Source: Acidobacteria bacterium CG_4_9_14_3_um_filter_49_7
GTDB lineage: Bacteria > Acidobacteriota > Holophagae > Thermotomaculales > Thermotomaculaceae
Direction of reading: 5' to 3'
Assembly (NCBI GenBank): GCA_002789615.1
Contig: PFTO01000166.1
Coordinates: forward strand, 7,883 to 47,691
Length of the DNA: 39,809 nt
The number at the start of each line of letters is the position of its first letter. Positions within the stretch are counted from its first letter, which is position 1. Positions 542-35,922 of the stretch are shown one piece after another. The notes below the pieces were generated by a model. The model was not told the origin of the DNA. It did not search any database and saw nothing but the letters and a program-made list of their open reading frames with translations. Made by a program: the position numbers and the translations under genes.

Positions 542-2758
542 TCATTCATCATTCTTCACCCGTATCCGTCCACTTCCCGACACGAATCGGCCGATTTTTG
601 CGGCCGATTTTACCCCGGCGGATTTCAATGCAGCGACCAGCCTGTCCCCATCCGGCTCCGTCACGGCTATGAGGAGGCCACCTGAGGTCTGCGCGTCAGA
701 TAAGAGCAGGCGCTCCGTCTGGGGTATTTTCTCATCCCAATCCACACTGTTCTTCACATAAGCGAGGTTGTTCCGGGTACCGCCGGGAATCACGTCTGCC
801 ATGGCCAAATTCCGGACACCGGGGAGAATCGGCACTGCCTGCGACCAGATTTCCCCATCTACTTTTCCGTCGGTTATCATTTCAGAGAGGTGGCCCAGAA
901 GACCGAAACCGGTGACATCGGTACAGGCGTGAATCGCAAACGCCACCATTGTTTCGGCTGCCTTTTGATTCAGTTCTGCCATTGCTTCCACCGCAGGGGC
1001 AAAAGCCTTTTCGTCTATGGCACCCTGTTTCAAAGCCGTGGCGAGAATCCCAGTCCCGATGGGCTTGGTCAACAGCAGTGCGTCACCGGGTTTTGCCCCC
1101 GAGTTGGCCAGTATGCGATCCGGATGCACTGTTCCCACCACCGCCATCCCGAATTTGGGTTCACTATCATCAACAGAATGGCCTCCAAGAATACAAATCC
1201 CCGCTTCTTTTGCTTTGGCAGTTGCCCCCGCCAGTATGCGATCCAGCACGTCCACCGGCAGCCGGTCCACCGGAAAGCCTACAATATTCAACGCAAACAA
1301 CGGCTTACCGCCCATGGCGTAGATGTCGGACAGAGCGTTGGCGGCCGCTATGGCGCCAAACTGGAACGGATCGTCCACCACAGGTGTGAAGAAGTCTACG
1401 GTGGCGACCAGCGCGGTGTCGTCGTTTAGCCTGTAAACGGCTGCGTCATCTGTGGTATCCGCCCCCACAAGCACGTTGGGGTCGTCCGGAACCGGCATCT
1501 TTTTCAGAATGGCTTCCAGTACCTGGGGTTGAATTTTGCACGCGCACCCCATTCCACGGGTAAACCGGGTCAGACAAACCTTTTCTCCAGCCTTCGTTGG
1601 GACTTTCACGGTATCGCCATGGGGTTGGAGAGTTCGAACCGCTTCAAGAATTTCATCTGCCGCCTGGTCAATTTCACCCGTGGACGTCATCCGTCCGGTG
1701 GAAAATCGAACGGTTCCCATGGCATATTCCACCGGCACTCTCATGGCTTCCAGCACCGAGGACACGTCCACTCTGTCTGTGTGGCAGGCCGCCCCGGCAG
1801 AGGCCGCAACTCCTGTCAGCTCCGAAAGGAGCGTATTGGCTTCTACCCCCCGAAAGGAAATACTCAAGGTATTGGGTAGACGGTCAGTCGAATGGCCATT
1901 CACCCGGCACTCTTGAACTCCTTCCGTCAGCCTGTGCTCCAGCCTGTCCCTGAGTGCTGCCGAGTGGGCCATATCTTCTTCAAGACGGGCCATCGCCAGT
2001 TCACAGGCCTTTCCCAGCCCGGCAATTTCCAGGATGTTTTCGGTTCCGGCACGAAATCCCCGTTCGTGGTCTGCACCGTGAACTAGTTTTTCCAGCTTCA
2101 CGCCGCTTCGGATATATAGGGCTCCGATTCCCTTTGGTGCGTATAGTTTGTGTCCGGCAACAGACAGAAGATCCACCCCCGATTCATCCACATGAACCGG
2201 AATTTTACCCACTGCCTGAGCCGCGTCCGTGTGCAGGAGAACGCCCCTGTCATGGGCCAGTTTCGCGATTTTCCCAATAGGCTGAATCGTACCCACTTCG
2301 TTATTTGCCGTCATGATCGTGATGAGAGTTGTCTGTGGTGTAATGGCAGTTTCCACATCATCCACGGAAACCATCCCGGTCTCATCAACCGGCAATACGG
2401 TGACCCGGAATCCGTTTTTTTCCAGGAAACGACAGACCTCCAGAACTGCCGGATGCTCCACTGCGGACGTGATGATATGGTTTCCTCTTTCCCGGTACGC
2501 GAACGCTGCCCCTTTGATGGCATAATTGTTGGATTCGGAGCCGCCGCTGGTAAATACCACTTCGTCAGGCCGACACCTGATTAACGCAGCCACCTGCCGC
2601 CGGGCTATTTCAACCGCATGCTTCGCTTCCATGCCGAAAGAATGGGAACTGGATGGGTTCCCGAACACGCCGTCAAGGAAGGGGCGCATAACTGCCGCAA
2701 CCGCAGGGTCAATGGGAGTTGTTGCGTTGTAATCGAGATAAATCGGTTTATTTTTCAT
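542..2758 (-). CDS. selD: fusion protein: NifS/IscS-like PLP-dependent cysteine desulfurase / selenocysteine lyase (N-terminal) plus selenophosphate synthetase SelD (C-terminal)
   Basis: 738-aa ORF. The N half carries class V aminotransferase/NifS hallmarks (IYLDYNATTP, SGGSESNN, SVAGHKLYAPKGIGALY). The C half is SelD (GMGCACKIQP glycine-rich loop, DDAAVY, VDFFTPVVDDPF, DIYAMGG, TDVTGFGLLGH, SGGLL). The SelD catalytic residue is Cys (TGC at 1546-1544), not TGA/Sec. Confidence 0.9.
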   Translation of the reverse strand: MKNKPIYLDYNATTPIDPAVAAVMRPFLDGVFGNPSSSHSFGMEAKHAVEIARRQVAALIRCRPDEVVFTSGGSESNNYAIKGAAFAYRERGNHIITSAVEHPAVLEVCRFLEKNGFRVTVLPVDETGMVSVDDVETAITPQTTLITIMTANNEVGTIQPIGKIAKLAHDRGVLLHTDAAQAVGKIPVHVDESGVDLLSVAGHKLYAPKGIGALYIRSGVKLEKLVHGADHERGFRAGTENILEIAGLGKACELAMARLEEDMAHSAALRDRLEHRLTEGVQECRVNGHSTDRLPNTLSISFRGVEANTLLSELTGVAASAGAACHTDRVDVSSVLEAMRVPVEYAMGTVRFSTGRMTSTGEIDQAADEILEAVRTLQPHGDTVKVPTKAGEKVCLTRFTRGMGCACKIQPQVLEAILKKMPVPDDPNVLVGADTTDDAAVYRLNDDTALVATVDFFTPVVDDPFQFGAIAAANALSDIYAMGGKPLFALNIVGFPVDRLPVDVLDRILAGATAKAKEAGICILGGHSVDDSEPKFGMAVVGTVHPDRILANSGAKPGDALLLTKPIGTGILATALKQGAIDEKAFAPAVEAMAELNQKAAETMVAFAIHACTDVTGFGLLGHLSEMITDGKVDGEIWSQAVPILPGVRNLAMADVIPGGTRNNLAYVKNSVDWDEKIPQTERLLLSDAQTSGGLLIAVTEPDGDRLVAALKSAGVKSAAKIGRFVSGSGRIRVKNDE

Positions 2759-17998: not shown

Positions 17999-19237
17999 AT
18001 GACTGCAAGAGAAACTGTTCGCCAATACTTTGAGAACCACCGGGATGAAATCCGGAAAACCATAGTGGATCTGACCCGGGAAATGTGCGCAGAAAAAACC
18101 GTGAATGTCGTTTCGGAAAAGCTGCCGGAATTTCCCTTTCTGAAAATCCGCGGAGAAGAATACCGGGTTGCGAAGATTGTGAAACGGGCAATGGATGAAG
18201 CCAAAATCCCTTACAACGAATACGCCAGGATGGAAGGCAGACCCAATATCATCGGATTACTGGGGAAAAATGCAAACGGGAAACGGCTGATGATACCGGG
18301 GCACATGGATGTGGTACCTGCCGGTGAGGGCTGGGACACCGATCCCTATGAGGTGATTGAAAAAGACGGTTTTCTCTATGGAAGAGGCGTGTTGGACAAC
18401 AAAGGTCCCCTTGCATCCATCCTTGCGGCCGCAATTGTACTAAAAGAAAGCGGCATTGACAATGAACTGGAAGGTCAGCTTCAGATTGCAGCGCTGTCTG
18501 ATGAAGAAGCGGAAGACCCGGACGGGATTGATTATGGAATCGGGTATCTCGTAGACGAAAAACTCGTGGATCCGACCATTTCGATCATTCCTGACATCGG
18601 AGAAAACATGGAGAGAATTGACATTGCCGAGAAGGGACGGACCCTGGTGAAGATTACGGCCATCGGGAAACAGGCCCACGGTTCTACGCCGGAGCTGGGC
18701 ATCAACGCGGTGTACATGATGTCAAAACTCATCAATGAGATTGAGCAACTGAAGTTTGAATACGAGTTGCATCCCGTTCTCGGTGAACCCTCTCTGAACT
18801 TGGGTGAAATCCACGGCGGTGCCGCTCCCAATATTGTGCCAGGGACCTGTTACATCTACCTGGACATCCGCACAGTGCCCGGAATGACAAAAGACAGCGT
18901 GTTAGCTCAACTCCAGGGCTGTGCGGATCGCGTTGTAGGCGGGAAGTTTGAACTGAATTGCATGTCCTGGAACGATGCCCACGGAGTGGATCCGGAAAAC
19001 GAGGTGGTGTATGCGATCCAGCGCAATGCAGAAGAGATCCTGGGATTCAAGCCGGAAACATTCGGAATGGGTGGCGGAACCTATGCCAAAACAATGAACC
19101 TCGCCGGCATCCTGGCAGTGGGCTGGGGTCCCGGAGACGACGAGGCGTATCATGTAGAAAACGAGTACGTTGAAATCAAACAGCTGGTGGACTTCGCTGA
19201 ATTAACCTGTCTTTTAGCCATTGATCTGCTCTCATAA
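17999..19237 (+). CDS. M20-family metallopeptidase (ArgE/DapE-like deacylase)
   Basis: 412 aa. Motifs HMDVVP, GRGVLDNKG and SDEE give the metal ligands and catalytic Glu pattern of M20. AAGGAGG RBS. Confidence 0.85.
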   Translation: MTARETVRQYFENHRDEIRKTIVDLTREMCAEKTVNVVSEKLPEFPFLKIRGEEYRVAKIVKRAMDEAKIPYNEYARMEGRPNIIGLLGKNANGKRLMIPGHMDVVPAGEGWDTDPYEVIEKDGFLYGRGVLDNKGPLASILAAAIVLKESGIDNELEGQLQIAALSDEEAEDPDGIDYGIGYLVDEKLVDPTISIIPDIGENMERIDIAEKGRTLVKITAIGKQAHGSTPELGINAVYMMSKLINEIEQLKFEYELHPVLGEPSLNLGEIHGGAAPNIVPGTCYIYLDIRTVPGMTKDSVLAQLQGCADRVVGGKFELNCMSWNDAHGVDPENEVVYAIQRNAEEILGFKPETFGMGGGTYAKTMNLAGILAVGWGPGDDEAYHVENEYVEIKQLVDFAELTCLLAIDLLS

Positions 19238-19241
19238 GAGA

Positions 19242-19280
19242 GTAGGAGTAGGAGTAGGAGTAGGAGTAGGAGTAGGAGGA
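19242..19280 (+). repeat. (GTAGGA)x6 + GGA perfect hexamer tandem repeat, 4 nt after the M20 peptidase stop
   Basis: Counted directly: six perfect units at 19242-19277. The artefactual VGVGVGVGVGVG in the track ORF 19221.. is its translation. Confidence 0.95.
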
Positions 19281-19406
19281 AGACCGGGAAATGAACAGGC
19301 AATTGTTCGGGCTGAAAAGCTCTCGGCAGGGGCTGGCAAATCAGCCATTCCCTGTCTTTTCTTCACCCAACCTTGCCTTCTGCTCAACCTCAAACCTGGC
19401 CCCAAA

Positions 19407-20303
19407 ATGAGTAACACAGCAATCTCTTCGTTCATCAATTATCTCATTGTGGAGAAGGGATTATCCGCCAACACCATTGAAGCGTATCGGAACGACATCG
19501 TGTTGTTCCAGAATTTTCTGGAACTGGAAAATGTGGACATGGTGTCTGTGGGGGAGGAAACAGTTACCCGCTATGTGGCTTTTCTCTTCAATGCGGGATA
19601 TTCCCCCCGTTCCATCATGCGGTTCAGTTCCAGCCTCCGCCACCTCTACCGCTTCATGGCGGAAGAGGGAATGATTCCGGAAAATCCCACAGACATACTG
19701 GAAACACCCCGGGCATTTCGCCTGCTACCGAAGTATCTGACCGATGGAGAAGTGGAAACCCTGTTGTCGCTGCCGGATGTGGAAACGCCGCTGGGCCAGC
19801 GGGACAAGGCTATAATTGAGCTGTTGTACGCCACCGGCCTTCGGGTATCGGAACTGATCAACTTGAAGGTTAACGACCTGAACATGGCCGATTGCTTCCT
19901 CATTACCTTCGGAAAAGGGGCAAAAGAACGACTGGTACCATTCACCGACACCGCCCGGAACTGGGTGGAACACTATTTGAACGATGGGCGGATTGCCACT
20001 TTGAAAGGGAAAGACAGTTATGTACTTTTTCTAAACCGTTTCGGAAACGCCCTGACCCGACAGGGGTTCTGGAAAATCCTGAAAGCTTATGGCAGAAAAG
20101 CCGGCATTGGGGACAAACTCTCTCCCCACACCCTGCGCCATACCTTTGCCACCCACCTGTTGGAACACGGAGCGGATCTCCGGGCTGTACAGATGATGCT
20201 GGGGCACTCTTCCATCACAACCACAGAAATCTACACCCACATCAGCATGGATAGGCTGAAACAGGTCTATTTCAAATTTCATCCCAGAGCAAATGAAGAA
20301 TAG
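19407..20303 (+). CDS. xerD: site-specific tyrosine recombinase XerD
   Basis: Starts MSNTAISSFINYLIVEKGLSANTIEAYRNDI. Catalytic signature ATGLRVSEL ... HTLRHTFATHLLEHGADLRAVQMMLGHSSITTTEIYTH. The true start is the ATG at 19407, not the TTG at 19221. Confidence 0.9.
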   Translation: MSNTAISSFINYLIVEKGLSANTIEAYRNDIVLFQNFLELENVDMVSVGEETVTRYVAFLFNAGYSPRSIMRFSSSLRHLYRFMAEEGMIPENPTDILETPRAFRLLPKYLTDGEVETLLSLPDVETPLGQRDKAIIELLYATGLRVSELINLKVNDLNMADCFLITFGKGAKERLVPFTDTARNWVEHYLNDGRIATLKGKDSYVLFLNRFGNALTRQGFWKILKAYGRKAGIGDKLSPHTLRHTFATHLLEHGADLRAVQMMLGHSSITTTEIYTHISMDRLKQVYFKFHPRANEE

Positions 20304-20469: not shown

Positions 20470-22683
<2,214 letters not shown>

Positions 22684-22920: not shown

Positions 22921-23415
22921 CTACCGCTTCATCATGATTTCAAAGTCTTCAAAAAGAGACTGTAAATCTTCTTCGTGTTCGACTTCATCCTGAAGAATCT
23001 GCAACACGATGTTGTATGTGACCGGATCCTTCATCATGGTGATCTCGAGGATGTTTTTATACACTCCGATTGCGCATTGTTCTCCCTTGATGTTCTGATT
23101 CAGGATGGTCTCCACAAATGAGTCATCCGGTGCATCATAGCCGCAGTTGGTCATGTCGTACCACTTCTTCGGCTCAATTACAGGCGTTCCACCGAGCTGG
23201 ACAATCCGCAAAGCCAGCATGTCTGCGTGGCGCAGTTCATCCATGGCATGTTGCAGCAACTCGGCAATAACCGCCTCTTTCATTGGCCCTTTGACCACCC
23301 TTGCGCCGAGCCAGTATTGATAATAGGCAAACCACTCATCAGAAAAAGCCCGGTTGAGCAGGTTCAATAGTTCCTGAACATCCATTCCGACAATTTCAAT
23401 CCCTTTACTTCCCAT
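22921..23415 (-). CDS. ferritin-like, Dps-like (DPSL / bacterioferritin-related) protein
   Basis: 164 aa. Ferritin-like di-iron motifs are present (E..YY.YW, DELRHA, LQDEVEHEEDL), plus two Cys (TNCGY, EQCAIG) as in DPSL-type proteins. GGAGGA RBS. Confidence 0.75.
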   Translation of the reverse strand: MGSKGIEIVGMDVQELLNLLNRAFSDEWFAYYQYWLGARVVKGPMKEAVIAELLQHAMDELRHADMLALRIVQLGGTPVIEPKKWYDMTNCGYDAPDDSFVETILNQNIKGEQCAIGVYKNILEITMMKDPVTYNIVLQILQDEVEHEEDLQSLFEDFEIMMKR

Positions 23416-23647: not shown

Positions 23648-26600
23648 TTATCTCTCATTTAGTCCGCTCTTAATGGACTGCCCCTGTTCAGTTTGTTTCC
23701 GCCGAAACGTCAGCTTCCGCCACAACCCTTCAAAACTGAACTGGCGCCATGCCCAGCCCATCCATTTAATAAGGGAATGGGCCAGCCACAACGCCCAGGC
23801 TAACATCAGGAAACGGTAAAACCATATTGAAATGGACAACACCCAGACTTCGGGAAGTCTTCCCGCCGAAAAATCCTGATACCATCGAAGATAATCCATA
23901 CTGGAGCCATTCCCGACAATGTACATTTCCGGCCGGCCCATCAGCCCGGCGTAAACAATGGCCAGCAGAATGCCAAGGGCAATGCAGGTGAGCGCCACCA
24001 GTCCCAGCTGGAGAAAATCAAATTTCCACGGGCTCAGCTCCCGGCTGTGTTCACTGCCTCGGAATGCCAGCAGAGAAAACCAGCCGACAATGAAAATGGA
24101 CTGAATCAGCCCCCCCTGGGTTAACCCCACTCCCAGCAGTATCCACTCCCAGCGGGAAAGGGGGGAACCGGGGATTGCCCCGAGAATGAAGGCAACAAGG
24201 ATCATTAACAGGAAAATACTCCAGAACCGTACAGCCGGCCCCTCAGTGGGGCCACCCACAAACAGCGGCCAGCGGTCATGGGGTAAAGAAATGTCAGTTT
24301 TAATATTTGCCGCCTCTGTGGCAAGTCCAACTGACGCCGTTCCCGTCCACATACCCAGTGTTCTCATTTCTTTCAAGTCAATTCGAATGTGCTGTTTTTG
24401 AGGTACCAACGGCAATATCAACCGCTTATCTTCCCGCTGTACCGGCACCATAGATTCATCCCTCTTTATGGTTTCCACCTTCATACCATCCGGCAACGTC
24501 AGTGAAAAATCCTGGCCCAGACTGCTGTTCACGTCCAGCTCCAGGATGGTTTTTCGCACCCGGGAACCGACGCTGATCCTCCTGGAAATTTTACTGACCG
24601 TTGCAGTGGGACCGGGAATGGCTTCCGGCCGGGTGATGTATAACACCATGGATTCCCCTGGCCAGGGCTTCCATAACGGGGTGTCCCCGTAGCCTTCCAG
24701 TTCGTAAACAGCTGTGCCCTCCCCGGTCTCCACATGCCAGACCGGAGACGCGGTAACGCCCCAGGTTTCCACCCAGCGTGCCGCGTCTGCGGCTTTCAAG
24801 TTAAGGATTGAAGTAACTGCTAACCTGCTTTCCCACACAAAAGAATCCTGGTCGGCTGACAAGCTGACAGCTATTTTTCCGTCCTTGATCTTGCTGTCGT
24901 CCGACGAAAGGACTTGCTCCCCTTCGAGAAGCGGCAGCAGCAGCGAAATCGCTTTTCCCTTCGCCGACAATCGGTAAACGGTAGTCTGAACGTGCCAGTT
25001 CATTCCCAGTTCCAGGAAACGCTGCACTGACACCAGTGGTTCTGTGGCAATCAAACCAAAATCATCCCCGGAATTTCCGGTTTTCCGTACTTTTCGGGAA
25101 AAGAATATCTGCTTTTCCGGTACATTGTTTTTCCCAATTCCAGTAACAGCCCAACCCGGGGCATGGATCGTGAGATAGTGGGGTTTCAGCAGGTAACTCC
25201 ACTCCCAGTCTGCCGCCGCGGGGATCATGCCGTCCAACTGAACGCTGTGAATTCCTTTCGGTACAAGGAGCCACAGGTAGCCGTTTTTCCGCATCACAAT
25301 GGCCTTGCCACCATCCACGGTAACAGAAACCGGAGACCATACCGGCAATTGCCCCGGCAATGGAACCGCAGTCTGGATCATGGCACTGATTTCCAGTCGG
25401 CAACGGAGGCGTCCATTTCCCACTGTCAGGGAAGCGCTGGAAATGTCCGCGCAGACCGGGTAGCAGGGTGCCGGCCTTGTCAACCGGTGTTTCAATTGTT
25501 TCAACAGGGTCTGATCGGGCATCTGAGCCCGGATGGGCAGGACAAAAAGGACAAGAATGGCTACTGCTGCGACCCGTTTCCATTTGAAGGATCGGGGCCA
25601 ACTCAGCGGCACGCCCAGCATCAGGGCCACCATCCAGCCCACAAGAATCAGCATCGTAAGCACCAGTATTTTTCTCAGAAGAGGGGGAATCAGAATGGGC
25701 CGTATCTTTTCGGAAGCCGTCACCGGGCCGCTCCACGTCAGAGACATAACGTTACCAGTCCACTGGGGAATACCAGGACCGGTTTGAATCCGGGCATCCG
25801 GCGAAAGTGCCAGGTTCTGTTGTGAATAATAATTTTGTCTCCCCTTACCTCCGGAAAACGAATCAGACACTGGCGCTGCCGCCGACACTTCCTCCATGGA
25901 CAGCTCTTGGTTCACATATTCCATTTTCTTTTTCTCTGCCGGGGGGCTTTTCAGTGCTCTCCGCATTGTTCTGTGGGACTGAATGAAAGAAAACATTGCG
26001 TGGGTCGGGTCCAGTTGGGGATAGAGAACCGACTGAATCTCCCGCCCGAAAAACGGTACAAGAATCAGAATCAATGAAAGAATCGCCAGATTCCGCCACC
26101 AAACCACCAATTTCCGCATTCGGCCCTCCGGCACAACCCGGAGCAGGGCCAGGGGCATCAGAAGGAAAAACCAGCTGTACCGTGCTGCTCCCGGTTCGTG
26201 GAAACTGAGCGCAAAGCCAAAAAAGACCACAACAGCTGATTTCACACCCCACAGCCGGTAAGCGGCCAGGGAAAAAAGCAGCAACAGGAAAAGATCCAGC
26301 AACGTCCACGCGCTGACCCAGTCTCCCCGGACCTGTTCCGCGCCGGGACAGAAAAACAATCGCCAGCCCGGGGGAAGATGCAGGCTCATAGACAACTTGT
26401 CCACATCGGTGAGCCAACCTACAGCCGGTATCGGACCCCGTTTCGGGATACGTCCAACCGCTTCCAGTTTTACCTTGTTTGTTCGAATCTCCACCCCAGC
26501 GTTCCCGGTAGCAGGATTGCGGGTAATCAATTGTCCCTTGCCGTCCATTCTTATCCGTCCTGGAATCTCAGAAGGGGACACATCCAGGCGCCGGGTCTTG

Positions 26601-27694
26601 TTCAGGTTCCCGTTCATGGTGTCCTGATAGATAAAACCATTTCCTTTTTCCCGCAACCAAAGGTTTCTTTTCAGGAAGATTTCCCGGGGAACCGCACTGC
26701 TGCTGTTTCCCTTCATCCGCTCCTTCAACACCAGGGGATTTTTGTGGTCCCATTGGTAAACCGGATAAGACTTCCATGTGGCAGGGATGCTGGTCTGACT
26801 CGGGTCAATTTGTGGTGCACCGGTGATGTCCAGCAGACGAAATGCCGGATCTCCCTCAAACGCCACGTACTCGCTGTGAAAAATCGGTGATAAATCTGCT
26901 GAAAATGAGAGAGAGGTAATGTCGTGGGTCCGAAAGGATCTTAGCTCAACGTTCCATGTACCCGACCTCACCTGGACAGTCAGTTTCCCTTCTGAATCCA
27001 CTGCAGCAGGCAGCTTGCTCATCACACTTGACAGTTGCCAGCCCGCCGGCAGTACGGTCCCCATTTTTTCTTCCCGGCTTCGCCCCGACACACGAATCTC
27101 TATATGCGTGGTCAGCCAGAGGGGGATTCCGTCTTTCAGAAGACGATATGCCTTGATCTCCATTGCATCCTTATCTGCCCGGGTCTCCTGACGTCGCTTC
27201 AACCACAACCGCCCCTGGTTGTCCAGCGCCGGGAAAGGGATATTCTTCCCTGCGACGCTCAGACGGATAATGCCTGCTGCAGGGGGGATGGTAATTTTCT
27301 GGGGAATGGCCGCCCATCTGAATTTTCCAGCTATAGTTGCCGTGCCCGGTTTCAATCGAACCATGGGGCGTCCATTGGACAACACCACCGGTACCGGTCG
27401 TCCATCCACCCTTACATCCACCGGCCAGAGTTCATCGTCGCCCGGAAGAGCCAGGCCAACATCCCGGAAAACGCGGACTTCCTGGGAGAAGATTCCACCA
27501 CGGGCTGACGCCTGAATCTTCAACGCACCGGGCCACAGACATAGATGGGTTTTCGCGTCATTGTACGGGGAGGGACAATTGGCATCAGGACTGTCCCACA
27601 TGACCCAGCCGGTCCAGGGTTTCAGCGGTTCGGGGATCGTGTTTCCCGCCATCAACGGACTCGCCGCAAGCAATAAAAAGAGTACTAGTTTCAT
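23648..27694 (-). CDS. very large (1348 aa) signal-peptide-bearing polytopic membrane protein, internally duplicated, unknown function
   Basis: Longest ORF in the window. Signal peptide MKLVLFLLLAASPLMAG. There are two large non-hydrophobic regions, each followed by a cluster of hydrophobic helices. No motif of a family I can name. Confidence 0.8.
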   Translation of the reverse strand: MKLVLFLLLAASPLMAGNTIPEPLKPWTGWVMWDSPDANCPSPYNDAKTHLCLWPGALKIQASARGGIFSQEVRVFRDVGLALPGDDELWPVDVRVDGRPVPVVLSNGRPMVRLKPGTATIAGKFRWAAIPQKITIPPAAGIIRLSVAGKNIPFPALDNQGRLWLKRRQETRADKDAMEIKAYRLLKDGIPLWLTTHIEIRVSGRSREEKMGTVLPAGWQLSSVMSKLPAAVDSEGKLTVQVRSGTWNVELRSFRTHDITSLSFSADLSPIFHSEYVAFEGDPAFRLLDITGAPQIDPSQTSIPATWKSYPVYQWDHKNPLVLKERMKGNSSSAVPREIFLKRNLWLREKGNGFIYQDTMNGNLNKTRRLDVSPSEIPGRIRMDGKGQLITRNPATGNAGVEIRTNKVKLEAVGRIPKRGPIPAVGWLTDVDKLSMSLHLPPGWRLFFCPGAEQVRGDWVSAWTLLDLFLLLLFSLAAYRLWGVKSAVVVFFGFALSFHEPGAARYSWFFLLMPLALLRVVPEGRMRKLVVWWRNLAILSLILILVPFFGREIQSVLYPQLDPTHAMFSFIQSHRTMRRALKSPPAEKKKMEYVNQELSMEEVSAAAPVSDSFSGGKGRQNYYSQQNLALSPDARIQTGPGIPQWTGNVMSLTWSGPVTASEKIRPILIPPLLRKILVLTMLILVGWMVALMLGVPLSWPRSFKWKRVAAVAILVLFVLPIRAQMPDQTLLKQLKHRLTRPAPCYPVCADISSASLTVGNGRLRCRLEISAMIQTAVPLPGQLPVWSPVSVTVDGGKAIVMRKNGYLWLLVPKGIHSVQLDGMIPAAADWEWSYLLKPHYLTIHAPGWAVTGIGKNNVPEKQIFFSRKVRKTGNSGDDFGLIATEPLVSVQRFLELGMNWHVQTTVYRLSAKGKAISLLLPLLEGEQVLSSDDSKIKDGKIAVSLSADQDSFVWESRLAVTSILNLKAADAARWVETWGVTASPVWHVETGEGTAVYELEGYGDTPLWKPWPGESMVLYITRPEAIPGPTATVSKISRRISVGSRVRKTILELDVNSSLGQDFSLTLPDGMKVETIKRDESMVPVQREDKRLILPLVPQKQHIRIDLKEMRTLGMWTGTASVGLATEAANIKTDISLPHDRWPLFVGGPTEGPAVRFWSIFLLMILVAFILGAIPGSPLSRWEWILLGVGLTQGGLIQSIFIVGWFSLLAFRGSEHSRELSPWKFDFLQLGLVALTCIALGILLAIVYAGLMGRPEMYIVGNGSSMDYLRWYQDFSAGRLPEVWVLSISIWFYRFLMLAWALWLAHSLIKWMGWAWRQFSFEGLWRKLTFRRKQTEQGQSIKSGLNER

Positions 27695-27732: not shown

Positions 27733-27761
27733 TGATAAAACAGTGAGAAAGCCCGCGTCAA
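27733..27761 (-). promoter_or_regulatory. possible own promoter of the 1348-aa gene (TTGACG-17-TTATCA)
   Basis: Hexamers on the minus strand at 27761-27756 and 27738-27733, about 40 nt upstream of the ATG. Pattern match only. Confidence 0.3.
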
Positions 27762-27846: not shown

Positions 27847-27879
27847 AAGACGGAGCGCCATTCAGCGCTCCGCCGTCTT
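27847..27879 (-). terminator. GC-rich hairpin after the bd-like oxidase operon
   Basis: CGGAGCGC (27851-27858) / GCGCTCCG (27865-27872) form an 8-bp stem with a 6-nt loop and extra flanking pairs. It lies about 20 nt downstream of the 27900 stop and has T-rich flanks on both strands. Confidence 0.45.
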
Positions 27880-27899: not shown

Positions 27900-28961
27900 T
27901 TAAGCGGTCAGTGCCTGCCATGCCTTCTTCACCATCCAGACCATCACGAAAATCCCGGCCACCAGTGAAACCAGAAACAGAACCATGGGCGAATACTCCG
28001 ATGCCATTTTCAATTGATCCAGGGTAAAGAATTTTCCAAGATAACCGGTCCTGAGAAAGGCCCGCATGAAAGTCATGAGATAGACCAGCACTGTCAACAC
28101 TACGGTAGTCGCAAGCACTTTTTTGCGAAAAGAAAAGACCAGCATCAATACAACCAGGATCAGCGCCAGGACAAATAGTCCGGTTGCGAGTCCGTTCTTC
28201 CCCATGAACATCATCATCACCGGTTTCGGCTGACTGGCAAGGAACCAGATGCCAAGGAGAATGGAGATAATCGTAAACATATTGAAAACCTTCATCCCCA
28301 CAGCTTCTCCATAGGCAGCGAGCTCCGGATCACTCTTTGACTTCAACCTGGTGATGAGGGCGGTATAAAGACCTCCGACGGCGATGGCACCGATCACCAT
28401 GTGTAAGTACCGGGGCAGAAAGGTGGGATGACCGGAGGCCAGCATTGTTCCACTCATGTGTTGAAAGTAACCGGAAAACTTGTCCGGCAGCGTCATCAAC
28501 AACATGTTGTTGCTGAGAAAGTAGGCAATGGTAATGAACAGTATGAACACAATGGAAATCACCCATCCGCCTGCCTTCCCCAGCTTTTCAAAGCGAAAAT
28601 CATATAAATAAGCACCGAAATAGGCCAGGATGAGGATGGGAATAATCAGGATCCAGAAAGCAGCCATCAGGATAGAGCTGGTATAAAAAAACTGCCCGTA
28701 AAGCACTTGAACAAAGAGCAGAGGTGCCACCCCGAAAGTGACAGTAAAGGCAACCAGCAGTGGTAGAAGGATAGCCAAGAAATAGGCCAGTCTGCGATTT
28801 ACTTCGCCTCCTTTGAAGCGCTGAACCATCGAGATACCGGCTGAACCCAGCATGGCGTTCATAAAGAGAAGGTGAATGGGAAAGGTAAGGAGGAGGAGGA
28901 ATTGAAGCCAGCCCCATGCCACAGGGAGAGCGTCCGGTGTGGGAATAAATTGATCGTTCAT
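27900..28961 (-). CDS. polytopic membrane protein in the subunit-II (CydB-like) position of the bd-like oxidase operon
   Basis: 353 aa, about 8-9 hydrophobic helices. Its ATG overlaps the upstream stop (ATGA at 28961-28958). No motif recognised; the assignment rests on position and size only. Confidence 0.55.
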   Translation of the reverse strand: MNDQFIPTPDALPVAWGWLQFLLLLTFPIHLLFMNAMLGSAGISMVQRFKGGEVNRRLAYFLAILLPLLVAFTVTFGVAPLLFVQVLYGQFFYTSSILMAAFWILIIPILILAYFGAYLYDFRFEKLGKAGGWVISIVFILFITIAYFLSNNMLLMTLPDKFSGYFQHMSGTMLASGHPTFLPRYLHMVIGAIAVGGLYTALITRLKSKSDPELAAYGEAVGMKVFNMFTIISILLGIWFLASQPKPVMMMFMGKNGLATGLFVLALILVVLMLVFSFRKKVLATTVVLTVLVYLMTFMRAFLRTGYLGKFFTLDQLKMASEYSPMVLFLVSLVAGIFVMVWMVKKAWQALTA

Positions 28962-30727
28962 TTCTGACCTCCTTTCAAAGAATTCAGATAGTCCGCGAGG
29001 TCTTCTTTCTCTGCTTTCGTTCCCTCCATCGGCGGCATCTCTTCAACAAGCTGATTCAGTTTGTCCAATGCGTCCCTGATTTTTGCCCGATCCCATGCGG
29101 CAGTCTTTTCAGCAAGGTCCGAAGATGCGTGGCAAGGGGAACAGTGGTCCTCAAAAACCCTCTTTCCATCCACTGAAGGGACAACAGGTTGCACAGCTTC
29201 TTTATGATTCAGGGAATATAGGAATGCGACAAGCTGGTCCTTTTCAGCGAATGTTCCATCATACGGCGGCATCTCTTTCACAAGCTGGTTCAATTTGTCC
29301 AATGCAGTCCTGATTTTTTGTTGCTCCCAACCAGCAGTTTTTTCAGCCAGATCCGCCAGCTCATGGCAACTGGAACAGTTTTCTTCAAACAACATCTTTC
29401 CCGAATTGTTTCCTGCATTAGACGGTTTTGGCTCACTCACATCCTTGCCGTTCAAATCCCCCGCAATGAAGGCGGCCAGTGCCTGTGCTTCTTTCGGCGT
29501 CCCGGCAAATGGCGGCATGAAATAACGGACTTTGTGAATTTTCCCGATGTATTTCGCCAGTGCGGTGTAACTCATGGACCTGGTCCGGGCAATGATATCG
29601 TTGTTGAACCCGCCGATTGTGTGACAGGCATAGCACTGATTGATGAACAGCTCCCTTCCGGCGGCAGACCGATTCTCCGGTGTTATGGTTCGGTTTCGAA
29701 TCCACCTGGCTGTCTTGAGAAAGCCCTCTTCCTGCAGCATCGGCACATCACTTTTCAGGATTTCATTTGAGTACATGAACTCGTTGACAACGAAGGGCCG
29801 TCTTGCCGCTTCCCTTGTCCATTCAAATGAACCCACAATCAGAAACCCACAGATAAAGGCCAGAACCGCCACCGGTTTCAAGTTCCAGGAAGGTTTTGCG
29901 ATCCCGGCAATCAAGGTGATAATCATGATGCCCACAGCTCCCCAGAATCCCCAGCGTAAGGCTGAAGCAATGGTTGGAGACTGGCCCGTCACAAGATTGT
30001 GGGCGTGGGTCGGCAGCACTGCCACATACCATAGCCCGCTTGGAATGGCCAGGATCAGAGAAACCAGTGTCCATTTGCCGGAAAAACGCGTCATGATCTC
30101 TTTCACAGCTGGTTCTTTTGTAAATGAGGCAGTCAGATAACCGTATGCTCCCGCCAGCATCGTGGCAATGAAGGTGCGGAAAAACACCGACGGCACAAAA
30201 GACGGATTGAAAAATCCACGCCAGAAGTTGTGATGGGCCAACCATGTACCAGGTGTCAGCATAAAGTCAATAATGCCGGTAATCAGAAACAGTGATATCC
30301 ATGCGCTGATGAAGTACACCCAGCCGATGGCCACGTGGGTTCTGTCATCCATTTTGCCAAAGGTGTAGAAATAGATAAATGCGGCGGAAATTTCCAGTAT
30401 GAAAAAGACCCATTCCGTGGCCCATCCGAACACAAAGTTGTGAATCACGAGGGAAATACCGCCCGGGTTTACCAGTGCGACAATAAACCAGATTCCCACC
30501 CCGGTAATGGAACCGTATACCATGGTAAGGAGCAGGAAAAATTTGGCATGGCGTTTTGTGAAGGCTAAAATGCCAGGATCCTGTTCACGCAATCCCTTTT
30601 TTTCGGAGTATACCAGATACAGCCCGCCACCCACCGCAAAATGCGAGACAAATACGTGGGTAACGGCAATCAGGGCTATCAGAAAACCGCCACCAATCGT
30701 GGGCAAGTACCACACAGGAAAATTCAT
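28958..30727 (-). CDS. cytochrome bd subunit-I-like (CydA-like) membrane protein fused to three c-type cytochrome domains
   Basis: 589 aa. CydA-like landmarks: AVTHVFVSHFAVGGG, GWATEWVFFILEISAAF, GSFEWTREAARRPF. The C-terminal 200 aa carry CYACH, CSSCH and CSPCH, each with a downstream MPP motif. Confidence 0.8.
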   Translation of the reverse strand: MNFPVWYLPTIGGGFLIALIAVTHVFVSHFAVGGGLYLVYSEKKGLREQDPGILAFTKRHAKFFLLLTMVYGSITGVGIWFIVALVNPGGISLVIHNFVFGWATEWVFFILEISAAFIYFYTFGKMDDRTHVAIGWVYFISAWISLFLITGIIDFMLTPGTWLAHHNFWRGFFNPSFVPSVFFRTFIATMLAGAYGYLTASFTKEPAVKEIMTRFSGKWTLVSLILAIPSGLWYVAVLPTHAHNLVTGQSPTIASALRWGFWGAVGIMIITLIAGIAKPSWNLKPVAVLAFICGFLIVGSFEWTREAARRPFVVNEFMYSNEILKSDVPMLQEEGFLKTARWIRNRTITPENRSAAGRELFINQCYACHTIGGFNNDIIARTRSMSYTALAKYIGKIHKVRYFMPPFAGTPKEAQALAAFIAGDLNGKDVSEPKPSNAGNNSGKMLFEENCSSCHELADLAEKTAGWEQQKIRTALDKLNQLVKEMPPYDGTFAEKDQLVAFLYSLNHKEAVQPVVPSVDGKRVFEDHCSPCHASSDLAEKTAAWDRAKIRDALDKLNQLVEEMPPMEGTKAEKEDLADYLNSLKGGQK

Positions 30728-30764: not shown

Positions 30765-30793
30765 ATTATACTGAAAACGACCTTCCATGACAA
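30765..30793 (-). promoter_or_regulatory. promoter of the bd-like oxidase operon (TTGTCA-17-TATAAT)
   Basis: On the minus strand the -35 lies at 30793-30788 and a consensus -10 at 30770-30765, about 38 nt upstream of the ATG at 30727. Confidence 0.5.
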
Positions 30794-30847
30794 TGACGGT
30801 GTGGTAGAATAAAGCTGAATTTAAAGCGAAAAAGTTGGAGGTGTCCT

Positions 30848-31339
30848 TTGGGACAGGTCAATTTTAGTGATTTGGGAAAAAAGATGGCTGCTGAACCCAG
30901 CGCATCCGAAAGGCTTCAGTTGCTGGTCAGCGCTATGGGGATAACATTTGATCTCCCACAGGAAGACGTTACCGTCATGGCAGAGGGCAACGGAGTTCTG
31001 ATTTTCCGGCACCCGAAATCCCTTGCAAAATCTACAGTTCCCATCACAGCAAAGTCCATTGCCGGGCAAACCTTTCAGCAAAACAAGGTCTATGTGTTCA
31101 ATAACCTCAGTGAAATTCAACATGTGGAACTGTTTGAGCATTTTGTACCAAGGGAGGGGGGCGCATTGCCGATTCAACGGATGATTTCCTGTCCCATCCC
31201 CGGCAAATCCGGTCCCAGGGGTGTGCTTCAGGTATGCAGAAAAGGAAAGATTCGGGATAGCGTAGCCCCTTTTTCGCGGTCGGACACCGATACCATTATT
31301 TCTCTCGCAAGAGTCGCGGGACAACACCTCCTGAGATAG
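30848..31339 (+). CDS. stand-alone GAF-domain protein
   Basis: 163 aa. A GAF-like pattern is present (SIAGQTF...VYVFNN...PIQRMISCPI...GVLQV.RKG...F...D...ISLARVAG). TTG start 7 nt after GGAGGTG. Divergent from the oxidase operon. Confidence 0.65.
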   Translation: MGQVNFSDLGKKMAAEPSASERLQLLVSAMGITFDLPQEDVTVMAEGNGVLIFRHPKSLAKSTVPITAKSIAGQTFQQNKVYVFNNLSEIQHVELFEHFVPREGGALPIQRMISCPIPGKSGPRGVLQVCRKGKIRDSVAPFSRSDTDTIISLARVAGQHLLR

Positions 31340-31379
31340 CTGCTTCATGAAAGCCGGAAAATATAATATGGAGTAATCA

Positions 31380-31721
31380 ATGCTTGTAAAACCTTACACA
31401 GAACTCAAACCGGAAAAAGTGGAGATGGAAGGCACAGTAAACACTACGATTCGGTGGCTGATAGCGGAAAAAGAAGGTGCCTCAAATTTTTTTATGCGGC
31501 TGTTTGAAGTGGAACCCGGAGGCCATACTCCCTTTCACAGTCATCCAGGAGAACACGAAATTTTTATCCTGGATGGCAAGGGAAACCTGAACAGTGAGAG
31601 CGGACCGAAGTCCCTGTTGCCAGGGACATTTGCGTTTGTTCCGGGAGGAGAAAAGCACCAGTTTGAGAACACGGGCAGTCAGCCGCTAAAATTTCTCTGT
31701 ATTATCCCCTCGGATTATTAG
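31380..31721 (+). CDS. cupin-domain protein
   Basis: 113 aa. Cupin motifs G.HTPFHSHPGEHEIFILDG and PGGEKHQFEN. Confidence 0.8.
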   Translation: MLVKPYTELKPEKVEMEGTVNTTIRWLIAEKEGASNFFMRLFEVEPGGHTPFHSHPGEHEIFILDGKGNLNSESGPKSLLPGTFAFVPGGEKHQFENTGSQPLKFLCIIPSDY

Positions 31722-31792: not shown

Positions 31793-32389
31793 TCAGTAAT
31801 TTTCTGCCATAACTTCAAAATAAGCCTGTGGATGGGCACATGCCGGACACACTTTTGGAGCTTCAGGGCCTTCGTGAATATATCCGCACTTGGTGCATTT
31901 CCAACGGGTAGGCTGGTCCTTCTTGAAAACTTTTCCTGCTTCAATATTGGCAGCCAGTTTCAGATATCGCTGTTCGTGGGCCCATTCCACTTTCGCAATA
32001 TTGCGAAACAATGCGGCAATCACGGGAAATCCCTCTTCTTCCGCCACATCGCCGAAAGTAGGGTACAACTCAGTGTATTCCTCGTTTTCACCTGCTGCTG
32101 CAGCTTTCAGGTTCTGTAGCGTAGTCCCCAGCTGAACCGGATAATCGGCATCCACGTTCACAATTACCGCCTCGTCGGCGCCCATTCCGGCCACCATTTC
32201 CTTGTAAAAATTCTTGCCGTGGATTCGCTCGTTATCCCCGGTTTCCAGAAACAAGGCTTCAATCTGCTTGTATCCTTCTTTCCCCGCCACGGACGCATAC
32301 ATGGAATAGCGGTTGCGTGCCTGGGATTCTCCGGCAAAGGCTTTCATCAAATTTCCAAGTGTCTTTGTCCCTTTCAATGATTTTGTCAT
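31793..32389 (-). CDS. rbr: rubrerythrin
   Basis: 198 aa. The N-terminus is an erythrin di-iron domain (NLMKAFAGESQARNRY ... E..H). The C-terminus is a rubredoxin-like CTKCGY...CPAC. Confidence 0.95.
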   Translation of the reverse strand: MTKSLKGTKTLGNLMKAFAGESQARNRYSMYASVAGKEGYKQIEALFLETGDNERIHGKNFYKEMVAGMGADEAVIVNVDADYPVQLGTTLQNLKAAAAGENEEYTELYPTFGDVAEEEGFPVIAALFRNIAKVEWAHEQRYLKLAANIEAGKVFKKDQPTRWKCTKCGYIHEGPEAPKVCPACAHPQAYFEVMAENY

Positions 32390-32439: not shown

Positions 32440-32883
32440 TCATCTAACCTGTTTGCTCCGCGCACATTCATCACATACGGTTTCGAAAACCACCATTTTA
32501 CTCAACACTTTGTACCGGGCACTCACAGCTTTCGGCACCGGGATGCTGTCAAGCTCGGGAGATTCAAAATCCACAATCCGACCACACCGAACGCACTGGA
32601 CATGGTGATGGGGCAAAGGATTGGTGTCAAAGCGAAGGCCGTTCCCGGTGGCGGGAATCTTGTGCAGAATACCCATATCCACGAAGGTTTGAAGAGTACG
32701 ATTGACCGTGTCAAATGAAACGTTGGGTGAACGGAGTGCAACCTCTCTGGCCACAGCCGCAACGGTGGGATGATTGTGGAGCATGGACAGAATCTCGAAT
32801 ACAAGTGTACGCTGAGGCGTGACTTTCATGCCATATTCCCGACATTTTTTGACAAACCAGTCCATATCGCGTTTCTCTGTCAT
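32440..32883 (-). CDS. Fur-family transcriptional regulator, PerR-like by context
   Basis: 147 aa. Features TPQR winged helix, the HHHVQCVRCG and CDEC metal sites, and a position immediately upstream of rubrerythrin. Confidence 0.85.
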   Translation of the reverse strand: MTEKRDMDWFVKKCREYGMKVTPQRTLVFEILSMLHNHPTVAAVAREVALRSPNVSFDTVNRTLQTFVDMGILHKIPATGNGLRFDTNPLPHHHVQCVRCGRIVDFESPELDSIPVPKAVSARYKVLSKMVVFETVCDECARSKQVR

Positions 32884-35151: not shown

Positions 35152-35922
35152 CTAACCCTTTTGGTAGGAACCCTGAATTTGATTTTTGTATTTCTTTCTG
35201 TTCCAGACAAATTTCAGTTTCACGGCATTGACCTTGCAGGATTCAATGCATTTTCCGCAGAGAATACATTCGGAATTCGTTATCAGCCCCTTGTTGTTTT
35301 TTATGTAATCAAGCATCGGGATTCGCAAAAGACAATCCTGTTCACATTTTCCGCAGCCCGTGCATTTTTCCACATCAACCACGGGGATAAGGCGCGAGTG
35401 ATGAGCACCTGCTGCACATAAAGTACCCATGAGGCACAGATTTCTGCACCCCCATCTTCGATCAAGCAAAAGCCCGAATATGACAGCCAGTGAAACATCA
35501 ACCATCCACGCAATCTTATAGTGCATACTGAAATCAAGTGCAAGAAAGGAAGGGATGACAGCAAAATTATGGGTGATCCCTTTCCCGGAATTCACAACAT
35601 AGAAAGCGATTGCGGAAGCGAAAAAAAGGATCAGGATCAGCAATCTCACCCATGTCTTCGGCTTGTTCCATTTTGTGGCTCTACTGGCGTGCCGACTTGA
35701 CAGATCGTAAGCCGTTCCCATAAAGCAAAACCAGCCGCAACCGATTCTTCCAAAAAGTGGTGTAATCAGGATAAACCCCATCCAGACGAGTACAACGAAT
35801 GTAACAACCCCCCAATATATTGAATGCCAGATGAAACCGAATGCAAAATACTGGAAGAAAACAGGCGTCAACAACAGAAAAACAATTCTGGAAACAGCGT
35901 TGAGTGAAAATAGTCGCTTCAT
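35152..35922 (-). CDS. membrane-bound polyferredoxin (NapH/MauN/CcoG-like 4Fe-4S binding protein)
   Basis: 256 aa, several TM helices. Motifs GRIGCGWFCFMG and RRWGCRNLCLMG, plus two ferredoxin motifs CTGCGKCEQDC and CILCGKCIESC. Confidence 0.75.
   Translation of the reverse strand: MKRLFSLNAVSRIVFLLLTPVFFQYFAFGFIWHSIYWGVVTFVVLVWMGFILITPLFGRIGCGWFCFMGTAYDLSSRHASRATKWNKPKTWVRLLILILFFASAIAFYVVNSGKGITHNFAVIPSFLALDFSMHYKIAWMVDVSLAVIFGLLLDRRWGCRNLCLMGTLCAAGAHHSRLIPVVDVEKCTGCGKCEQDCLLRIPMLDYIKNNKGLITNSECILCGKCIESCKVNAVKLKFVWNRKKYKNQIQGSYQKG

Follow-up and report, generated by a model that had tools for sequence, protein, structure and literature searches.

A two-gene, OR-C1-type member of the cytochrome bd superfamily with fused cytochrome c domains in an acidobacterial genome, and its probable role as a quinol-independent reductase

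The DNA considered here is a stretch of 39,809 nucleotides from Acidobacteria bacterium CG_4_9_14_3_um_filter_49_7 (contig PFTO01000166.1, positions 7,883 to 47,691 of the forward strand), which we refer to as the window. Within it lies a pair of genes encoding a member of the cytochrome bd superfamily. The first of these, subunit a, consists of a membrane core resembling CydA that is fused to cytochrome c domains, and the second, subunit b, occupies the position in which CydB would be expected. We think it probable that the two form a quinol-independent, two-subunit complex of the OR-C1 type, in which periplasmic cytochrome c drives the reduction of O2 (or peroxide) with protons taken from the cytoplasm. 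The evidence for the family assignment, for the two-gene unit and for the proposed function is presented in turn, together with the alternatives that have to be weighed against it.

An initial annotation of this DNA, made by eye from the sequence, proposed a CydA-like core for subunit a, and profile searches agree: Pfam family PF01654 (Cyt_bd_oxida_I) aligns residues 17–204 with profile positions 6–199 at an E-value of 2.3e-10 and 40.1 bits, the Pfam cutoff being 26.2 bits. The N-terminal half of the core scores 37.4 bits by itself, and the best Pfam match for the C-terminal half alone is again PF01654, weak but co-linear (profile positions 314–380, E 0.019). The CydA-like part extends to about residue 315 rather than to about 390 as first estimated. 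Two of its landmarks had been read correctly, THVFVSHF as the region of the haem ligand His19 of Escherichia coli and ATEWVFFILE as that of Glu99 and Glu107. A phmmer search of the PDB matches residues 8–163 to CydA of Geobacillus thermodenitrificans (5doq_A) and places His24 on His21 and Glu105/Glu112 on Glu101/Glu108, and hhalign pairs His24, Glu105, Glu112 and His131 of the subunit a profile with His19, Glu99, Glu107 and His126 of E. coli CydA. The hhalign probability here is negligible, as it is for the profile of either subunit against the single E. coli CydA or CydB sequences, and a family-specific profile of subunit a, too narrow for the purpose, lost the CydA match in the PDB and returned cytochrome c chains only. 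The AlphaFold2 model of subunit a has eight long helices up to residue 308, followed by three small helical domains, and its top 14 Foldseek matches in the PDB are all chains of bd oxidases.

Conservation within the family is strict. His24, Glu105, Glu112, Ser145, His131 and Arg184 are kept in all of 82 subunit a sequences, which span Acidobacteriota, Desulfobulbales, Geobacteraceae and Desulfuromonadales, and so are Glu302, Trp303, Arg305, Glu306, Arg309, Arg310 and Pro311. The GSFEWTREAARRPF motif had been likened to the GWxxxExGRQPW motif of CydA, and in position this comparison holds: an unconstrained local alignment of the profile of transmembrane helices (TM) 7 and 8 with full-length E. 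coli CydA lands on residues 443–458 and pairs Glu306 with Glu445, Arg309 with Arg448 and Pro311 with Pro450. In its statistics it fares less well, with an E-value of 0.034 and equal scores in 158 of 1772 shuffles, and the equivalence of Glu306 to Glu445 is probable, not proven. The invariance of the core residues across the 82 sequences, along with that of the CxxCH motifs and methionine ligands described below, supports the view that subunit a would be an active enzyme and not a relic. Two further residues of subunit a were considered as new haem sites and rejected, namely His96, which the hhalign alignment places on E. coli His86, and Met156, which corresponds by eye to E. coli Met146; we take neither of these E. 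coli residues to be a haem ligand.

What appears to have been lost from the core is the quinol site. The loop between TM6 and TM7 is about 16 residues long compared with about 140 in E. coli, so that there is no Q-loop, as the initial annotation had observed. It had also noted the absence of a histidine at the His186 position, reading an arginine there; Phe183/Arg184 occupy the site, and no equivalent of Met393 is found. On these alignments subunit a is without the ligands of haem b558. The score above the PF01654 cutoff could in principle reflect an ordinary quinol-oxidising CydAB that has acquired extra cytochrome c domains, but the short loop and the missing His186 and Met393 speak against such an enzyme, as does its partner, since none of 92 members of the subunit b family (subunit b and 91 diverse relatives) matches the Pfam CydA or CydB models and no CydX-like small open reading frame (ORF) is conserved behind subunit b in 75 loci. 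We therefore consider this explanation extremely improbable, and the sequence features tested exclude a canonical quinol oxidase. With regard to topology, an N-out orientation gives 11 lysine and arginine residues among 55 in the cytoplasmic loops and one among 58 in the short periplasmic loops. Eight helices and this positive-inside bias together imply an N-out/C-out protein, in keeping with the helix count first made by eye, and the haem c domains would therefore be periplasmic, the location that maturation of c-type haem requires.

The C-terminal 240 residues of subunit a match Pfam family PF13442 (Cytochrome_CBB3) in three stretches (E 8.6e-27). The CYACH, CSSCH and CSPCH motifs that had been picked out by eye are found at residues 365, 451 and 529, each with its MPP motif (residues 404, 486 and 564), and the three domains are assigned from these motifs to the class-I cytochromes c of the His/Met type. 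Profile matches and motifs of this kind lie well outside what chance would give. In the first domain the best stretch for PF13442/PF00034 covers residues 355–421, and Cys365, Cys368, His369 and Met404 are invariant; it has weak matches in the PDB to cytochrome c6 and CcoP, and subunit a itself has weak CcoP matches in the PDB and NCBIfam. The Cys, His and Met ligands of the c haems are invariant among the 82 homologs wherever the domain in question is present. Domains 2 and 3 would be a tandem duplicate, being 64% identical, and relatives have two, three or four haem c motifs through gain or loss of the repeat unit that domains 2 and 3 of the window represent (two in L035, L059, L060, L080 and L084; four in L004, L014, L051 and L082).

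This exact architecture has already been catalogued, including a three-haem member from Desulforhopalus. Murali, Gennis and Hemp (bioRxiv 10.1101/2021.01.16.426971) divide the bd superfamily into qOR, OR-C and OR-N enzymes and, in the accessible parts of their preprint, define OR-C1a as an eight-helix CydA without a quinol site, with a C-terminal periplasmic haem c extension and an adjoining paralog, OR-C1b. Their Table S6 gives for the OR-C1a reference His24, Glu105, Glu112, Ser145, His131, Tyr119, Tyr121, Val77 and Trp80, with Phe183 at the position of His186, and subunit a of the window has identical residues at identical numbers, its Ser145 corresponding in the same table to E. coli Ser140. 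In Table S7 the three-haem protein of Desulforhopalus singaporensis is entered as OR-C1a and the haem-c-free product of the next gene as OR-C1b. Subunit a is 53.2% identical over 592 residues to this OR-C1a in strain DSM 12130 (L083), and subunit b is 47.4% identical over its full length to the OR-C1b. As both the diagnostic residues and the identity to the listed pair agree, we regard the assignment of the window genes to OR-C1a and OR-C1b as established at the level of sequence, short of a phylogeny. Set beside the group as it is described in the accessible parts of the preprint, the window pair shares the eight-helix core with equivalents of His19, Glu99, Glu107, Ser140 and His126, the absence of Q-loop, His186 and Met393, the C-terminal periplasmic CxxCH domains and the adjacent paralogous subunit b without a glutamate pair. 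Nothing essential is different; the window comes from a Holophagae/Acidobacteriota-like genome, and its subunit b has nine predicted helices where OR-C1b is given eight. The remark in the initial annotation that CydA-like clades with fused c haems are known only from bioinformatic surveys is accurate for OR-C1a as catalogued there: in the literature up to 2026 we found no biochemical characterisation of OR-C enzymes, and a paper of May 2026 cites OR-C solely through its phylogenetic classification.

Subunit b is less readily placed, having no match in Pfam or NCBIfam. Its family as delimited with HMMER is compact (1628 clusters at 50% identity), and a subunit b profile run against the PDB found nothing, being too narrow. 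A BLASTP comparison of subunit b with subunit a was not significant (E 0.11), so profile–profile comparison was needed; hhalign aligned the two co-linearly over their full length with probabilities of 92%, 96.2% and then 97.5%, the final E-value being 2.5e-11 over 301 columns. The AlphaFold model of subunit b, with a predicted template-modelling score of 0.76, shows nine long helices, among them residues 326–352, and its top 11 Foldseek matches are all CydB or CydA, the best being CydB of M. smegmatis (9r2g_D, template-modelling scores 0.64/0.67). On account of this alignment, the modelled fold and the restriction of the structural matches to bd oxidases, subunit b is identified as a full-length CydA paralog in the place of CydB.

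Residues at haem-type positions are conserved in this paralog. Across the 92 family members, which are 30–56% identical to the window protein, eight columns are invariant, including His30, His187, Met296 and Arg300, and Arg304 (91/92) and Arg184 (89/92) are nearly so. In the alignment of the two subunits His30 of b falls on His24 of a, and thus on E. coli His19, and His187 of b falls on Phe183 of a, the position that Table S6 of the preprint equates with E. coli His186; the acidic (Glu) pair of TM3 is missing from b. With His30 and His187 at the positions of His19 and His186 of E. coli, subunit b is likely to bind haem, which suggests, and does not prove, that unlike canonical CydB it is itself a haem protein, probably with one or two b-type haems. 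On these alignments subunit a would keep the catalytic and proton-channel set, and subunit b the haem b558-type histidine lost from a. The accessible parts of the preprint hold no description of His30, His187, Met296 and Arg300 of subunit b, or of the conserved Glu306-x-x-Arg-x-Pro motif of subunit a. Met253 of subunit b was considered as an equivalent of Met393 and rejected, as it is kept in only 46 of the 92 sequences; the invariant methionine is Met296.

The two genes form a bicistronic operon bracketed by a conserved promoter and a terminator-like hairpin (Table 1). The start of subunit b overlaps the stop codon of subunit a in the sequence ATGA, and a ribosome-binding site, GGGGGGA, stands immediately 5' of the subunit a ATG. 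The -35 element and TTTTCAGTATAAT (an extended -10 element) are unchanged in the relatives L007, L008 and L009, in the last of which the intergenic DNA around these elements has diverged. The T tract behind the hairpin is weak, and the next gene downstream has a promoter-like site of its own at 27761–27732. Full-length homologs of subunit a are abundant, with 6759 matches. Relatives occur in 547 GTDB species genomes, a scan of which retained the best 80 loci; the nearest are metagenome-assembled genomes of Holophagae/Acidobacteriota (94%, 90% and 80% identical), and others belong to Desulfocapsaceae, Desulfobulbaceae, Geobacteraceae and Desulfuromonadales. Desulfopila, Desulfosediminicola and Trichlorobacter thiogenes are among the hosts of the gene pair. 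In 83 of 85 loci the gene immediately behind subunit a encodes a subunit b homolog, while the remaining two loci end at a contig edge; the junction is usually an overlap of 4 or 1 nucleotides. No third conserved gene was found across 82 loci, a and b alone being common to the neighbourhoods of different lineages. Because b adjoins a so consistently, because the pair alone is shared, and because promoter and hairpin bracket it, the functional unit is one of two genes, with subunit b as an obligatory second subunit.

Table 1. Coordinates of the operon, of key residues and domains, and of neighbouring stress-related genes in the window
Feature	Position	Strand	Remarks
Subunit a (OR-C1a)	28958-30727	-	ATG start, 589 residues; membrane core of CydA type with three fused cytochrome c domains
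Subunit b (OR-C1b)	27900-28961	-	353 residues, without Cys, nine predicted helices; CydB position
Promoter-like site, TTGTCA-17 nucleotides-TATAAT	30765-30793	-	about 38 nucleotides 5' of subunit a ATG; 11/12 consensus match
Terminator-like hairpin	27849-27874	-	11 pairs, 8 of them G-C; about 25 nucleotides past subunit b stop
CydA-like core of subunit a	29783-30727	-	residues 1-315, eight TM helices
His24 codon, subunit a	30656-30658	-	within THVFVSHF
Glu105-Glu112, subunit a	30392-30415	-	within ATEWVFFILE
Phe183/Arg184, subunit a	30176-30181	-	His186 site
GSFEWTREAARRPF motif, subunit a	29792-29833	-	compared with GWxxxExGRQPW
Cytochrome c domain 1	29444-29695	-	residues 345-428; CYACH 29621-29635; Met404 of MPP 29510-29518
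Cytochrome c domain 2	29198-29419	-	residues 437-510; CSSCH 29363-29377; Met486 29264-29272
Cytochrome c domain 3	28961-29185	-	residues 515-589; CSPCH 29129-29143; Met564 29030-29038
His30, subunit b	28872-28874	-	
Arg184 to His187, subunit b	28401-28412	-	
Met296 to Arg304, subunit b	28050-28076	-	
KatG catalase-peroxidase	20470-22665		
Dps/ferritin-like protein	22921-23415		
Cupin	31380-31721		
Rubrerythrin	31793-32389		above NCBIfam cutoff
Fur-family regulator	32440-32883		best matches are PerR models

From these features we infer the cofactor content, electron donor and substrate of the complex. Subunit a would insert N-out with eight helices, the first four of which would hold the haem site (His24) and the whole cytoplasmic proton pathway (His131, Glu112, Ser145 and Glu105), and the Glu306-x-x-Arg-x-Pro segment at the end of TM8 would probably provide the second ligand of the high-spin haem. 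The three His/Met cytochrome c domains would hang in the periplasm after TM8 and replace the Q-loop and haem b558, the first of them being tethered some 35 residues past TM8, above the TM5–8 bundle, where CydA has both of these. Periplasmic c-type cytochromes would hand electrons to the chain of c haems, and the membrane-proximal c haem would most likely take over the part of haem b558 and pass electrons on to the buried His24/Glu306 site, at which O2 (possibly H2O2 or nitric oxide, NO) would be reduced with cytoplasmic protons. Because the protons would come from the cytoplasm, turnover would be electrogenic with no pumping of protons, and O2 would be the most probable substrate, since each of the conserved features serves O2 reduction in bd oxidases. 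Subunit b would take the place of CydB, its putative haems having no assigned role in this scheme.

An arrangement of this kind has partial counterparts in several known systems. The canonical CydAB(X) oxidases (qOR1-3; 6rko, 6rx4, 5doq) have the same fold, the His19-type ligand, the channel of Glu99, Glu107, Ser140 and His126 and the pseudo-symmetric design of two subunits; in the window, however, subunit a has no Q-loop or b558 ligands, the three cytochrome c domains stand where TM9 would be, a CydA paralog with His/His/Met positions is found as partner in place of a haem-free CydB, and no gene for a small subunit was found. Closer in one respect are the archaeal CydAA' enzymes (qOR4a/qOR4b), whose second subunit is likewise a duplicated CydA that has lost the proton-channel glutamates and kept the His19 equivalent. 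Their CydA retains His186 and Met393 and remains a quinol oxidase, whereas in the window it is b, not a, that has the His186 equivalent, and electrons would enter through the fused c haems. As regards electron entry, tethered class-I His/Met c domains are shared with the haem-copper oxidases, in which such domains, fused to or docked on the enzyme as in CcoP of cbb3 and subunit II of caa3, serve as input modules of high potential; the catalytic superfamilies, haem-copper and bd, are unrelated. Finally, a distant 'CydA homolog with C-terminal periplasmic cytochrome domain' has been reported from cable bacteria, with CydB stated to be absent (bioRxiv 10.64898/2026.01.20.700514; PMC10030654). It is alike in its described architecture and in its affiliation with Desulfobulbales, to which many of the homologs found here also belong. 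In contrast to the missing CydB of those papers, a partner in the CydB position is present, and unannotated, in every locus examined here, contig-end cases aside.

The haem-type residues of subunit b invite two readings that go beyond the scheme given above. In one of them the ancestral CydA ligand set has been split over the two paralogs, subunit a holding the site of His19, Glu99, Glu107 and Glu445 type along with the c haems, and subunit b holding one or more haems of its own with histidines of His186 and His19 type, Met296 and Arg300. We put this forward tentatively and with some doubt. If true, it would give the complex another redox branch, leading to the quinone pool or through the membrane, by which that pool could be linked with O2 and with the pool of periplasmic cytochromes; the supposedly CydB-less CydA homolog in cable bacteria and their relatives would then have an overlooked haem-bearing partner. 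In the other, the complex would be a quinol:cytochrome c module for electron export, or a reversible link between the pools, in which the b haems exchange electrons with menaquinone and pass them to the c haems, so feeding periplasmic acceptors in the manner of CymA; such a module might also work in the opposite direction, or turn to the reduction of O2 once oxygen appears. The invariance of His30, His187, Met296 and Arg300 at haem-type positions is what would be expected of such a module, the family is enriched in hosts with extracellular or long-range electron transfer (Geobacteraceae, Desulfuromonadales, Desulfobulbales), a PF11783 multihaem cytochrome lies directly downstream in nine Geobacteraceae-type loci, and the literature on cable bacteria proposes such a role, or a dual one, for the CydA homolog. 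Neither subunit, however, has a Q-loop or any other recognisable quinol site, the invariant proton channel together with His24 and Glu306 is hard to explain in a pure electron conduit, and the c haems are of the His/Met type and presumably of high potential, whereas CymA and NrfH have bis-His haems. For these reasons we judge an export function unlikely.

The genes around the operon bear on a further explanation, in which the complex would be a peroxidase or NO reductase of the membrane that takes electrons from periplasmic cytochrome c and turns over H2O2 or NO, rather than O2, at the bd-type site, so helping an anaerobe to respond to oxidative or nitrosative stress. In the window the genes for KatG, a Dps-like protein, rubrerythrin and a PerR-like regulator all lie near the operon, and in the 80% relative (L001) the operon is accompanied by genes for rubrerythrin and for an ODP diiron protein. 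Catalase and peroxidase side activities, moreover, are known from canonical bd oxidases, as is a strong interaction with NO. Neighbours connected with oxidative stress fit a role in defence against oxygen or peroxide, but they are not conserved outside the clade, and what is conserved in the complex belongs to the site at which bd oxidases reduce O2 and does not discriminate between substrates; a dedicated peroxidase or NO reductase seems to us quite unlikely.

The cytochrome-c-driven reductase of O2 that we favour is itself not free of difficulties, and the following points weigh against it. The hosts are mostly anaerobes, and the stress neighbourhood is confined to the clade of the window, rubrerythrin and CysK recurring in 6 of 82 loci. 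The scheme in its simple form gives no reason for the invariant haem-type ligands of subunit b. The equivalence of Glu306 with Glu445 is statistically weak, and Table S6 of Murali, Gennis and Hemp (bioRxiv 10.1101/2021.01.16.426971) enters Glu445 as absent ('-') for the OR-C1a reference. Moderate quality is all that the AlphaFold model of subunit a reaches, with a predicted local distance difference test score of 72.7 that falls below 50 over residues 81–125, and the template-modelling scores of its Foldseek matches are low (0.24–0.42). Lastly, the cable-bacteria literature leaves the role of the CydA homolog unresolved.

Several other genes in the window and in related loci were recorded in the course of this work. 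Directly downstream of the operon, a 1348-residue ORF (23648–27694, reverse strand) has an N-terminal signal-like segment and hydrophobic clusters at about residues 459–726 and 1152–1255, with no sequence match in Pfam, NCBIfam or the PDB. Its GC content of 0.54 is above that of its flanks, and it is present in the 94% relative (L007) and absent from L001; as it is common only to the 94% relative, it was rejected as a part of the module. A tyrosine recombinase of the phage-integrase family, XerC/D-like (19221–20303, forward strand), adjoins KatG. Because the gene order shared with L001 is interrupted between subunit b and this recombinase, the block of KatG, Dps and the 1348-residue ORF may be an insertion. 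On the other side, a 163-residue ORF without a Pfam match (30848–31339, forward strand) is divergent from the operon and overlaps an ORF on the opposite strand (30821–31348); the forward-strand ORF is probably a real gene, since L001 has a gene for 161 residues in the same position and orientation. Further away are a 738-residue fusion (542–2758, reverse strand) of a NifS/IscS-like cysteine desulfurase (residues 6–378) with a SelD selenophosphate synthetase (residues 392–732), the SelD part scoring over the NCBIfam cutoff, and a 256-residue membrane ferredoxin (35152–35922, reverse strand) with Fer4_5, two 4Fe-4S motifs and weak similarity to the NapH/MauN family.

In the related loci, the multihaem cytochrome found directly downstream of subunit b in the nine Geobacteraceae-type loci (for example L042:6538-8022) has about 494 residues and combines PF11783 (Cytochrome_cB) with c7-like motifs; in these bacteria it may serve the complex as a redox partner in the periplasm. 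Loci from Desulfobulbales show a synteny of their own, with a sigma-54 activator near the operon in 17 loci, PspA in 9 and a NifU-N-like protein of 144 residues immediately upstream in 15 (examples of these neighbours are L052:449-1501, L027:1524-2201 and L027:3496-3930).

To what is already catalogued about OR-C1, the present analysis adds that the functional unit consists of two genes and that the second of these, invisible to Pfam and annotated as 'hypothetical' everywhere, carries invariant haem-type ligands. Work by expression or knockout should take this unannotated partner into account, and so should surveys in which CydB is scored as absent; since the partner is universal in the loci covered here, the reported absence of CydB from cable bacteria merits re-examination. 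Among bd-type oxidases, those of the OR-C group would stand alone in being driven by cytochrome c and not by quinol. Their hosts number hundreds of species, most of them anaerobes, the 547 GTDB species genomes noted above belonging to the OR-C1-type subclade alone, and no OR-C enzyme has been purified. What these enzymes do matters for the way in which sulfate reducers, metal reducers and Acidobacteria deal with oxygen, and for the question of how O2 is reduced in cable bacteria, which have no recognised terminal oxidase.

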